A program made the position numbers and the translations under genes. The notes below the pieces were generated by a model that worked only from the letters and a program-made list of their open reading frames with translations, was not told the origin of the DNA and made no database searches. A DNA stretch of 16,480 bases from a virus (lineage: Duplodnaviria; Heunggongvirae; Uroviricota; Caudoviricetes), in the IMG/VR virus record IMGVR_UViG_2548876963_000009. The stretch is one strand, 5' to 3'. Below, piece by piece: positions 10,283 to 11,729 of this stretch; within the stretch, counting starts at the first letter, position 1; each line of letters starts with the position of its first letter.

Positions 10283-10741
10283 TTATCTGGCAAGCATACG
10301 TTGTTGATGCTGTTTCACAACACGTAAACGTAAGCTGTCATAGGCCCAATTGTAGAACATGGTATATGGTAGAAAGAAAAGGAAGAATCCTATCTCTAGT
10401 GTAAAAGCCTGTAACAGACTGACGCTCAGAATCCAGGACACCATAATGACGCCGATCGCGATAAATCCACTTTCAAAGCCCAAAGCATGGAATGCACGAA
10501 CTTTTGCAGTTCGTTTTACCTGATGAGCAGGCCAGTAGCGATCAAATAGCATGTTATAGATGATATTCCAGATCATTGCAGTTGAAGCCAACAAGATAGT
10601 CATCCCGCCCATTTCGAGTATAGTTCGCTGCATTAACCATGCTGTGGTGGGGGCCAGAATCGCAGTGGCAATTCCTTCAAAGCAAATAGCGTGAAAAATA
10701 CGCTCAAGTAACGATCTGCGTTGAATCGCATTATGTTGCAT
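10283..10741 (-). CDS. PACE-family (AceI-like, bacterial transmembrane pair) small efflux transporter
   Basis: 152 aa, hydrophobic, with two tandem repeats each carrying the PACE signature: R-x-x-H-A-x-x-F-E (RIFHAICFEG and VRAFHALGFESG), as in AceI. Confidence 0.75.
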   Translation of the reverse strand: MQHNAIQRRSLLERIFHAICFEGIATAILAPTTAWLMQRTILEMGGMTILLASTAMIWNIIYNMLFDRYWPAHQVKRTAKVRAFHALGFESGFIAIGVIMVSWILSVSLLQAFTLEIGFFLFFLPYTMFYNWAYDSLRLRVVKQHQQRMLAR

Positions 10742-10844
10742 AACTTACCTTTCTTACAGTTTCGACCGCGTTATGGAGTTGTGAGATTTTTATCGATTTA
10801 TGTGATATATAAAAGATAGATACCATCGAAAAAATTGATAGATT
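10742..10844. promoter_or_regulatory. Divergent promoter/operator region between the PACE transporter gene and the LysR regulator gene
   Basis: A 103-bp AT-rich intergenic region between divergent starts (10741 and 10845), containing ATCGAT and TGATAGAT/ATAGATACCATC dyad-like elements. Exact sites were not resolved. Confidence 0.35.
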
Positions 10845-11729
10845 ATGCGTTACTCACTTGAAGCGTTAAGTACATTTGTTGAAGCGGTTTCCTGTGGCTC
10901 CTTTTCTGCTGCGGCACGAAGATTACGCAAAAGTCAGTCCGCAGTCAGTACGTCAATTGCCAATCTTGAGGTCGATCTTGGTATATCATTATTCGATCGC
11001 TCTTCGCGAGAACCTGTGCTGACAGAGGAAGGAAAGAAAGTATTGAGTTACGTTCATGCGATTTTGTCAGCCAGTGAACGTCTTGAGGAGGTGGCGGTTT
11101 CGCTTGCCGGAGAGACTGAAGCTCGTCTGACGTTTGTGCTTTCCGATACCCTACACCCTGACTTATTAGAAGACATCATGGTGCAGTTTGATAGTCAGTT
11201 TCCACATACTGAGTTAGAGGTTTTAATTGGTGAGGATGTCGATGTCATCGATCTTTTGCAAAAAGAACGAGCGCAGATCGGCTTAATTGAGTCTCGGGAA
11301 CACTACCCCACCGATATTGGCTCAACCCGTTTACCGATGCAAGCGTGGATGGGCATTTATGTTTCGGCGTCACATCCACTGTCTGCAGAAAAAACAATCC
11401 AGCGGGAACAACTTCATTCATGGCGAGAACTTCGTCTTAATACTTATATCGATAACCGGGAGATGATTGCCCGTGGACCGGTTTGGTCTGCACCTAACTA
11501 TTTGTTGTTACTCAGTATGGCCGTACAGGGATTTGGCTGGTGCTCTCTGCCCTGTGCTCTGGTTGAGGAGTTTGCAACAGAAAAACCGCTGGTTCAGCTC
11601 GACGTACCTGGCTGGCCAAAGGCAATTTCTATCGATCTGCTTTGGAATAAAAAATCGCCACCAGGCGCGGCTGGAAATTGGCTTAAGCATCATTTACAGC
11701 ATATCAATGCCCCAAATAGTCGAACTTAG
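10845..11729 (+). CDS. LysR-type transcriptional regulator (AceR-like by context)
   Basis: 294 aa. N-terminal HTH with the LysR signature ...GSFSAAARRLRKSQSAVSTSIANLEVDLGISLFDR..., and a C-terminal co-inducer-binding domain. Divergent to the PACE gene. Confidence 0.9.
   Translation: MRYSLEALSTFVEAVSCGSFSAAARRLRKSQSAVSTSIANLEVDLGISLFDRSSREPVLTEEGKKVLSYVHAILSASERLEEVAVSLAGETEARLTFVLSDTLHPDLLEDIMVQFDSQFPHTELEVLIGEDVDVIDLLQKERAQIGLIESREHYPTDIGSTRLPMQAWMGIYVSASHPLSAEKTIQREQLHSWRELRLNTYIDNREMIARGPVWSAPNYLLLLSMAVQGFGWCSLPCALVEEFATEKPLVQLDVPGWPKAISIDLLWNKKSPPGAAGNWLKHHLQHINAPNSRT

Follow-up and report, generated by a model that had tools for sequence, protein, structure and literature searches.

The gene pair and its products

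The window, by which we mean the whole stretch of DNA analysed here (16,480 nucleotides), carries two divergently oriented genes and the control region between them:

10283-10741, minus strand: PACE-family transporter gene, 152 aa, identified by Pfam, NCBIfam and motifs
10742-10844, no strand: divergent control region, 103 bp between the PACE and LysR genes
10792-10806 and 10825-10839, no strand: two predicted ATC-N9-GAT boxes (LysR-type T-N11-A), 33 bp apart
10845-11729, plus strand: AceR-like LysR-type transcriptional regulator gene, 294 aa, with HTH_1 and LysR_substrate domains (Pfam)

The product of 10283-10741 is a PACE-family transporter. In a Pfam search, PF05232 (BTP) matched two stretches of the protein (E 2.8e-44), and the NCBIfam models PACE_efflu_PCE and PACE_transport scored 205.6 and 169.8 bits, above their respective cut-offs of 165 and 80. 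The marks of the family are a TM1 glutamate within R-x-x-H-A-x-x-F-E, a repeat of this motif in TM3, WN in TM2 and YNW..D in TM4. The motif occurs twice in the protein, as RIFHAICFE at residues 14-22 and RAFHALGFE at 82-90, with glutamates E22 in the first copy and E90 in the second; WN stands at residue 58 and YNW at residue 130. The protein's N-terminal half aligns with its C-terminal half, and hydropathy windows at approximately 11-37, 47-66, 83-105 and 108-130 fit four predicted TM helices. An identical protein is registered in RefSeq as WP_001164448.1, "multidrug/biocide efflux PACE transporter". A PDB sequence search with the protein detected no solved PACE structure.

The 294-aa regulator combines an N-terminal HTH_1 domain with a C-terminal LysR_substrate domain, and has the divergent target gene and the predicted T-N11-A boxes in the spacer that go with a LysR-type protein. 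Its best PDB match, 8j4n (E 1.4e-31), aligns over the full length and is a full-length LysR protein that bears only a generic name; entries for the DNA-binding domain of AceR are also among its PDB matches. Among named NCBIfam LysR models, AceR (NF052373) scored highest. The first-pass annotation, which had described a 152-aa PACE protein with a duplicated signature and a divergent LysR partner, agrees with these results throughout: the coordinates are exact, both motif copies and both PF05232 stretches are present, and HMM searches recover the BTP pair family as well as the LysR substrate-binding domain.

That annotation had also likened the pair to AceI/AceR of Acinetobacter baumannii, and here the outcome is divided. 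AceI resembles the window protein in its two BTP domains, its TM1 glutamate and its duplicated R-x-x-H-A-x-x-F-E motif, and AceR is a divergently encoded LysR activator with two upstream binding sites, from which it activates aceI (PMC5961012), as the window has a divergent LysR gene and two predicted boxes. Equivalog status was nevertheless rejected for both proteins: the transporter reached 93.8 bits with the AceI family model (NF033663), whose cut-off is 180, the regulator 126.9 bits with the AceR model, whose cut-off is 500, and within the PACE family AceI falls in a distant clade. Since a divergent LysR partner lies beside every PACE gene studied by the authors of PMC4406071, and a divergent PACE/LysR pair was found in all 80 species-representative loci from other Enterobacteriaceae (spacer 95-129 bp), this architecture is common in the family and not specific to AceI.

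Both ATC-N9-GAT boxes fall in the 103-bp spacer, where the chance expectation for such boxes is about 0.03. Among 77 distinct enterobacterial spacers, the LysR-proximal box is exact in all and the PACE-proximal box in 60, and the 33-bp box spacing is kept in 58. These counts make the pair of boxes a conserved two-box predicted operator, a detail that is new and open to direct testing. A consensus promoter scan performed at chance level, so no promoter is named.

The insert and its phage surroundings

The pair lies within a longer insert in an E. coli lambda-like prophage that has decayed, surrounded by the following features:

about 10215-11850, no strand: whole cargo insert, 1,636 bp (the pair plus 68 bp and 121 bp)
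10210-10191, minus strand: tL4 terminator hairpin with T-run, downstream of the PACE gene
10179-10160, minus strand: second hairpin with T-run, downstream of the PACE gene
9973-10140, minus strand: ORF55, phage backbone, phage 434/HK022 homology
9601-9945, minus strand: ORF114, phage backbone, phage 434/HK022 homology
6817-9448, plus strand: split IS3 element, at the expected xis/int place after ORF114
7758-9131: IS110-family insertion in IS3, 1,374 bp
11934-11851, minus strand: 27-aa hydrophobic ORF whose ATG overlaps the stop codon of the DUF551 gene (ATGA)
11931-12713, minus strand: dATP/dGTP pyrophosphohydrolase-DUF551 gene (Pfam), phage backbone on the other side

On the left, homology to phages 434 and HK022 stops at approximately 10214, 68 bp past the PACE stop codon; on the right, matches to other prophages restart at 11851, 121 bp past the LysR stop codon, and the segment 11851-12100 is common to more than 1,000 E. 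coli genomes without the pair. GC content is 44.1% in the insert versus 49.5% in the early-left phage genes. The pair had been described as bracketed by terminators, which holds on the PACE side, where two hairpins follow the gene and the annotations of HK022 and phage 434 place tL4 at the point that corresponds to the first of them, but not on the LysR side, where a terminator scan found none past the stop codon.

A further proposal, that the pair takes the place of xis/int, was rejected. The early-left operon runs in the order insert, tL4, ORF55, ORF114, and intact relatives continue with xis and int; ORF55 and ORF114, backbone genes matched by PHROG families 676 and 1229, stand ahead of xis and int in phages 434 and HK022. 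The pair is therefore upstream of tL4-ORF55-ORF114, and the xis/int position is held in the window by IS3 with its IS110-family insertion. The normal layout is seen in a contig with the pair (L099), in which ORF55 is directly followed by lambda xis and int.

The slot upstream of tL4 is variable: other prophages carry ASCH, DUF4222 or DUF4752 genes there, and in the prophages of strains GN02050 and FT130 the tL4 left flank abuts a variant right flank, which corresponds to an empty site. The phage DNA that encloses the pair at three attachment sites, together with the empty site in these related prophages, supports its status as prophage cargo in E. coli rather than chromosomal flank, in line with the first-pass suggestion that it might be phage-borne. 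The features of a "moron" are phage flanks on both sides, empty sites, a differing GC content and an own regulator with a predicted operator, with the qualification that the empty sites have the variant right-flank allele, that an own promoter is presumed and that the terminator is the phage tL4.

Distribution in E. coli, phages and plasmids

The pair was found in 14 of 5,426 complete E. coli genomes (0.26%), every copy within prophage DNA. The carrier prophages occupy three attachment sites, namely thrW and argW in complete genomes and attλ in contig L099, which comes with intact lambda xis and int and whose visible content further includes an immunity-region repressor, cro, cII, N and part of O. 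All 14 complete-genome copies reside in decayed prophages that are either IS-riddled or reduced to 3-kb stubs, and in the argW stub the pair is among the very few elements remaining. Across sites, the insert is 99.6-100% identical among every E. coli copy examined, whereas the phage flanks within 9535-11972 differ by an estimated 3% or so between copies, and the conservation of the cargo exceeds that of its surroundings about ten- to twentyfold. All the copies examined have both ORFs intact, and the exact PACE protein is present on 977 contigs.

A tblastn search of 50,697 phage records revealed no isolated phage with a PACE gene; the matches obtained were mis-filed bacterial contigs of Salmonella and Acinetobacter. 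No PHROGs family matches PACE. IMG/VR yielded four predicted-prophage contigs with the pair, all likewise decayed or composite in structure, and these were not taken as evidence of an intact phage. None of the E. coli plasmids carries the gene, and the plasmid matches from Enterobacter, Salmonella and Klebsiella that were examined or measure several hundred kb look like pieces of chromosome. Because all the complete-genome copies are in decayed prophages, transfer of the pair via phage particles is something that we infer rather than observe.

A chromosomal counterpart between yqeF and yqeG

In most other Enterobacteriaceae the pair has a chromosomal home. Both yqeF and yqeG flank it in 76 of the 82 non-Escherichia loci examined, and the genera with this synteny include Citrobacter, Salmonella (STM3021; STY3166 in S. 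Typhi), Enterobacter, Kluyvera, Klebsiella and others. As in the window, the locus consists of two divergent genes with a spacer of about 100 bp and both ATC-N9-GAT boxes, and its PACE protein passes the same NCBIfam model as the window protein (PACE_efflu_PCE). The Citrobacter and Salmonella versions share 80-83% protein identity with the window for PACE and 75-82% for LysR. The settings differ, the window module being in a lambdoid prophage and the yqeF-yqeG locus in the chromosome, and homology is limited to the two genes; no yqeF or yqeG remnants were found in the stretches that extend past them (68 bp and 121 bp).

No Escherichia species representative carries the pair. In E. coli, approximately 1.43 kb is missing between yqeF and yqeG at exactly the position of the pair, and with a Citrobacter locus as query, none of 5,420 matching E. 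coli genomes covered at least 80% of it, the junction being empty. The nucleotide divergence of the module is 21-26% with respect to every genus sampled, so it was not recently acquired from any of these; this divergence tracks that of E. coli yqeF and yqeG. Taken together, these comparisons are best explained if the module is a copy of the yqeF-yqeG chromosomal locus that was lost from there in E. coli.

Proposed mechanism and competing explanations

Building on the observed identities of both genes, limits of the insert, distribution, synteny and conservation of the boxes, we consider it very probable that the pair is a two-gene module of a PACE pump and an AceR-like LysR activator, of yqeF-yqeG origin, carried as a passenger ("moron") in the pL operon of E. 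coli lambda-like prophages just upstream of tL4, and that it works in the following manner. The LysR protein would bind both ATC-N9-GAT boxes in the spacer; should PACE transcription start about 25-35 nt upstream of the ATG, these would lie near -65 and -35, and the distal box would also overlap the promoter region of the LysR gene. By analogy with the family literature, from which we infer inducer, substrates, activation and proton coupling, binding of a cationic amine inducer by the regulator would activate PACE transcription. The pump, probably a dimer, would exchange protons for substrate via the membrane-embedded E22 (counterpart E90), consistent with the proton coupling and TM1 glutamate of PACE pumps (PMC9045395); its substrates would be short-chain diamines, with cationic biocides (for example chlorhexidine and acriflavine) exported as a side activity. 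The regulator and promoter region that the module brings along would free its expression from pL, both in lysogens and in stubs of dead prophages.

Several other explanations were weighed. The core syntenic position of the pair in so many genera would suit host chromosomal DNA that merely abuts the prophage; for E. coli this is refuted by the scarcity of the pair among complete genomes and its absence from Escherichia representatives, by the three different attachment sites and by the empty yqeF-yqeG junction in all matching genomes, while phage DNA lies on both sides (tL4/ORF55/ORF114 and the DUF551 gene), and we regard it as highly improbable. The co-orientation of the PACE gene with early-left transcription, upstream of tL4, suggests instead that antiterminated pL read-through might let the module serve the phage, for instance by adjusting the polyamine or diamine pool in lytic growth, and AceI, likewise a PACE protein, is a diamine exporter (Hassan 2019, cited in PMC9045395). 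Such read-through must however cross the LysR gene in antisense, the regulator and predicted operator boxes are unchanged from the chromosomal versions, the module persists where all lytic functions are gone, and neither the sequenced free phages nor PHROGs include a PACE gene; a role of this kind is hardly credible.

The degraded state of the carrier prophages and the small phenotype reported for an E. coli PACE gene would be expected of inert baggage, left to decay in dead prophages and now useless to host and phage alike. Against this stand the intact ORFs, the exact protein on 977 contigs and the conservation of cargo above flanks; near-sole survival in the argW stub fits retention, although chance may also account for it, and dN/dS against Citrobacter orthologues is 0.05-0.09, a long-term figure that cannot isolate the period since capture. 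We judge inert baggage to be improbable. A bolder version of the yqeF-yqeG origin holds that the prophage module is the last copy of the locus of the Escherichia lineage, or of an equally distant unsampled one, lost from the chromosome and now kept only by lambdoid phages and possibly as part of an IS3-bounded 16.4-kb circular or tandem unit. It fits the yqeF/yqeG-like divergence, the near-sole retention in 3-kb stubs and the conservation above flanks; the last of these would be in keeping with a selected lysogenic-conversion trait, for example tolerance of diamines or biocides. We think it rather unlikely as a whole; if true, it would answer how PACE genes get mobilised in E. coli.

Relation to known PACE genes and significance

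The module that we favour, a pump and activator of yqeF-yqeG origin carried by lambdoid prophages, has a close parallel in ECTW07793_0407, an E. coli PACE gene on which PMC4406071, PMC6195760 and PMC5840245 comment. Like the window gene, it is a rare accessory gene (at most 0.2% of strains) described with flanking transposase and phage sequences, an association mentioned in PMC5840245, and its critical glutamate is numbered E22 (PMC5840245), as in the window protein; this numbering is what suggests that the two genes may be identical. These papers leave its insertion point unmapped, in contrast to the mapped slot in the window. Its effects are about 2-fold, on overexpression (Hassan et al. 2015, PMC4337561): the MIC of chlorhexidine was 0.39-0.78 versus 0.195-0.39 for the control, and that of acriflavine 6.25 versus 3.125. 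In the same screen STY3166 of Salmonella, a close orthologue, gave no resistance (PMC4337561), and PA2880 gives no protection against cadaverine (PMC9045395).

The first-pass idea of an unusual new biocide-tolerance determinant consequently lapses: the protein is named in RefSeq, MIC tests of an E. coli PACE gene date from 2015, and its link to mobile DNA is in print (PMC5840245). The pair is real, ordinary and largely known, a rare annotated E. coli accessory gene; the PACE family, the architecture of pump and LysR regulator, the rarity in E. coli and the link to mobile DNA have all been published, and its discovery value is small. For surveillance purposes it is a low-level biocide-tolerance determinant at most. 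The new details are where exactly the insert sits, its origin in the chromosome and the pair of conserved regulator boxes. The first of these gives a concrete route for PACE mobilisation in E. coli: lambdoid prophages at thrW, argW and attλ carry a 1.6-kb module in a slot of variable content upstream of tL4.

A comparable case of cargo is EmrE, whose gene lies in DLP12, a lambdoid prophage of E. coli K-12 that is defective. Like the window pump, EmrE is a small, proton-coupled 4-TM exporter of cationic compounds carried by a decayed lambdoid prophage; in contrast to it, EmrE belongs to the SMR family, which is unrelated to PACE, is without a dedicated LysR regulator and occupies another prophage slot. 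SMR genes are described as "frequently encoded by prophages" (PMC5840245).

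Identity of the Gene Pair

The first-pass annotation proposed a 152-aa PACE-family transporter with a duplicated motif and a divergent LysR partner, and both assignments are borne out. The two genes are separated by 103 bp:

10283-10741, minus strand: PACE transporter ORF, 152 aa
10845-11729, plus strand: LysR regulator ORF, 294 aa, with HTH_1 and LysR_substrate domains

Two segments of the PACE protein are hit by Pfam BTP (PF05232, 'chlorhexidine efflux transporter'; E 2.8e-44), and the protein exceeds the cut-offs of the NCBIfam models PACE_efflu_PCE (205.6 bits, cut-off 165) and PACE_transport (169.8 bits, cut-off 80). 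Both copies of the signature, RIFHAICFE (residues 14-22) and RAFHALGFE (residues 82-90), are present with the companion motifs WN (58) and YNW (130), the N- and C-halves can be aligned with one another, and hydropathy fits four helices. The pair exists as described, and its family-level naming is right.

The pair had also been likened in architecture to AceI/AceR, the pump and regulator of Acinetobacter baumannii. This holds for the divergent arrangement of a pump and a LysR regulator, but the equivalog cut-offs are missed: the PACE protein reaches 93.8 bits against the AceI model (cut-off 180) and the regulator 126.9 bits against the AceR model (cut-off 500), which is still its best-scoring named LysR model. 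Among solved structures, the regulator is best matched by 8j4n, which is a LysR protein of full length (E 1.4e-31 over residues 4-285); AceR DNA-binding-domain PDB entries also match it, and no PACE structure in the PDB is detectable by sequence. Divergent LysR partners are also widespread in the PACE family: the authors of PMC4406071 report one beside every PACE gene they had studied, and one was found in 80/80 related enterobacterial loci fetched. Judged by these comparisons, the resemblance to AceI/AceR is real at the family level only.

A Variable Cargo Slot in the Early-Left Region

The pair lies within an insert whose borders can be placed on the lambdoid phage backbone:

10210-10191, minus strand: hairpin and T-run corresponding to tL4 (terminator scan)
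10179-10160, minus strand: second hairpin (terminator scan)
about 10215-11850: cargo insert, 1,636 bp
from 11851: right-flank backbone, a 27-aa hydrophobic ORF and a dATP/dGTP pyrophosphohydrolase-DUF551 gene

Positions 9536-10214 are 94-96% identical to phages mEp213, mEp043, 434 and HK022, and the annotation of 434 and HK022 gives this segment, in transcribed order, as tL4, ORF55, ORF114, t'I (annotated in 434), xis, int and attP. Beyond the LysR gene, homology to over 1,000 E. coli genomes devoid of the pair begins at 11851. The limits of the insert follow from the end of phage homology at 10214 and its resumption at 11851; its GC content is 44.1%, versus 49.5% in the early-left genes. A synthetic 'empty-site' query retrieved the GN02050 and FT130 prophages, in which tL4 directly abuts a variant small-ORF/DUF551 module, and other cargo (ASCH, DUF4222 or DUF4752 genes) occupies the same slot in many prophages, including the one of BL21 and REL606. 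The insert thus occupies a site at which lambdoid phages carry varying cargo.

The earlier suggestion that the pair replaces xis/int is contradicted by L099, a contig bearing the pair in an attλ prophage, where lambda xis and int directly follow ORF55 and adjoin ybhC, the attλ site. In the window, ORF114 is followed by an IS3 split by an IS110-family element, and in strain 377323_2f, which carries the pair in a thrW prophage remnant, an integrase survives past an IS3. Bracketing by terminators applies to the PACE side, with its two hairpins, but the scan found none 3' of the LysR stop codon.

The 27-aa ORF (11851-11934, minus strand; MSWPEAFATVGIAMAVALVLYSICRWG), whose ATG shares bases with the DUF551 stop codon (ATGA), is unannotated and matched no family in a PHROG search. 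Over 1,000 E. coli genomes conserve it together with the DUF551 gene, and the insert ends on the right at this ORF.

Distribution Among E. coli Prophages

The pair was found in 14 of 5,426 complete E. coli genomes. In seven carriers it lies in a decayed, IS-ridden prophage, at thrW in the two inspected. The flanks in the other seven match those of a ~3.4-kb argW stub with the order torI, ORF114, ORF55, PACE, LysR, truncated DUF551 gene and truncated intS; among the three of these inspected, two are this stub and the third has IS elements after the truncated DUF551 gene. These genes and gene fragments are all that remains at the argW loci of several E. coli (L002, L090 and L091-L096), where the phage itself is almost entirely gone but the cargo persists. 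The attλ contig retains int, xis, exo, bet, gam, kil, cIII, N, an immunity-region repressor, cro, cII and part of O. In E. coli the pair is prophage cargo, with phage DNA on both sides at three attachment sites (thrW, argW and attλ).

The exact PACE protein occurs on 977 contigs, in a cluster from E. coli with members also in E. albertii. No PACE gene was detected by tblastn in isolated phage genomes (50,697 phage records), no PHROG family matched the protein, and no E. coli plasmid carrying the gene was found. The cargo is 99.6-100% identical across all copies compared, whereas a 2.4-kb region including phage flanks is only 98.6-99.0% identical, from which we estimate that the flanks differ by about 3%. 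This pattern fits module exchange among diverged phage backbones.

Chromosomal Origin of the Pair

The same divergent pair, with a 95-129-bp spacer, is present in 80 species-representative genomes, including Citrobacter, Salmonella, Enterobacter, Kluyvera, Leclercia, Lelliottia, Klebsiella, Yokenella and Phytobacter, and of 82 non-Escherichia loci examined, 76 have it flanked by yqeF and yqeG. The pair could thus have been core chromosomal flank rather than cargo, but in E. coli yqeF and yqeG are adjacent, with about 1.43 kb missing at exactly its position; a Citrobacter query was covered to at least 80% in 0/5,420 matching E. coli genomes, and no Escherichia representative genome has the pair.

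The nearest versions belong to the Citrobacter amalonaticus group (77-79% nucleotide identity, 83% PACE protein identity), with no homology to them outside the two genes and a dN/dS versus Citrobacter of 0.05-0.09. The divergence of the pair was calibrated with yqeF and yqeG as the yardstick. Over all pairs of genera the pair/flank ratio has a median of 1.19 (5th-95th percentile 1.06-1.31), and for the window pair against each genus, relative to E. coli's own flanks against the same genus, the median is 1.27 (1.18-1.34). The distance of the donor from the sampled genera is thus roughly that of Escherichia itself, and the pair was not recently imported from any of them.

Control Region and Proposed Mechanism

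Conservation between genera is strong in the LysR-proximal half of the spacer. This half contains a pair of ATC-N9-GAT boxes (LysR T-N11-A type) that lie 33 bp apart; in the 103-bp spacer chance would give about 0.03:

10792-10806: box nearer the PACE gene
10825-10839: box nearer the LysR gene

Among 77 distinct spacers, the LysR-proximal box is exact in all 77 and the PACE-proximal box in 60, with a one-base difference in the other 17; the 33-bp spacing is kept in 58. The centre of the PACE-proximal box is about 56-60 nt upstream of the PACE ATG. Assuming a PACE transcription start about 25-35 nt upstream of the ATG, the boxes would adopt the classical LysR layout, with an activation site near -35 and, near -65, a recognition site that overlaps the promoter of the regulator itself. 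A parallel exists in AceR, whose two binding sites lie upstream of aceI and which activates that gene once ligand is bound (PMC5961012). By analogy with characterized members, the pump would be a proton-coupled antiporter using the TM1 glutamate (here E22), likely acting as a dimer (PMC9045395 and references therein).

Substrates and Earlier Reports

Overexpression of the E. coli accessory PACE gene ECTW07793_0407 raised chlorhexidine and acriflavine MICs about 2-fold, and the Salmonella orthologue STY3166 gave no resistance (PMC4337561). For AceI, diamines have been proposed as natural substrates (Hassan 2019, cited in PMC9045395), and PA2880 gives no protection against cadaverine (PMC9045395). 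Chlorhexidine, acriflavine and diamines are accordingly candidate substrates of the window pump, by analogy.

The pair does not qualify as an unusual new biocide determinant, since rare, mobile-linked E. coli PACE genes are published and RefSeq already names this one 'multidrug/biocide efflux PACE transporter'. Four rare PACE gene clusters, each in at most 0.2% of strains, are described in E. coli, with early loss in the lineage and occasional re-acquisition on mobile elements suggested (PMC4406071, PMC6195760). The TW07793 and KTE84 homologue is flanked by transposase and phage sequences, and its key glutamate is numbered E22, as in the window protein, a likeness of residue numbering (PMC5840245). 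Our contributions are incremental: they define the exact slot and insert borders, identify three attachment sites, trace the pair to the chromosomal yqeF-yqeG locus and describe a conserved two-box operator.

Other Features of the Window

Because its first 56 bases (1-56) recur unchanged as the last 56 (16425-16480), the window closes into a circular or tandem unit of 16,424 bp. This unit is circularly permuted relative to the stretch bounded by two directly repeated IS3 copies in the thrW remnant of 377323_2f. Such a product is expected of IS3-IS3 recombination and could be an excised circle or an amplification or, equally, an assembly-graph loop.

The early-left operon ends at gam, which abuts a replication gene P of opposite orientation that lacks its 5' end (16186-16480 and 1-489). 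A deletion from kil to the beginning of P has removed the entire immunity region together with part of the replication region. The IS3 (about 6817-9448) contains a 1,374-bp IS110-family element (7758-9131; 358-aa transposase ORF 8039-9115), absent at this place from the best-matching complete E. coli genomes (best coverage 92%), and a full-length Rfam match to the Hfq-binding sRNA isrC (6885-7007, plus strand; 130.7 bits, gathering score 39). A second cargo island (739-5370; GC 35-45%), between truncated replication gene P and ybcN/ninE, encodes an inverse autotransporter of 1,183 aa, an intimin/invasin-like adhesin carrying Big_1 and Invasin_D3 repeats, and, convergent with it, a 347-aa alpha/beta hydrolase with a signal-peptide-like N-terminus.
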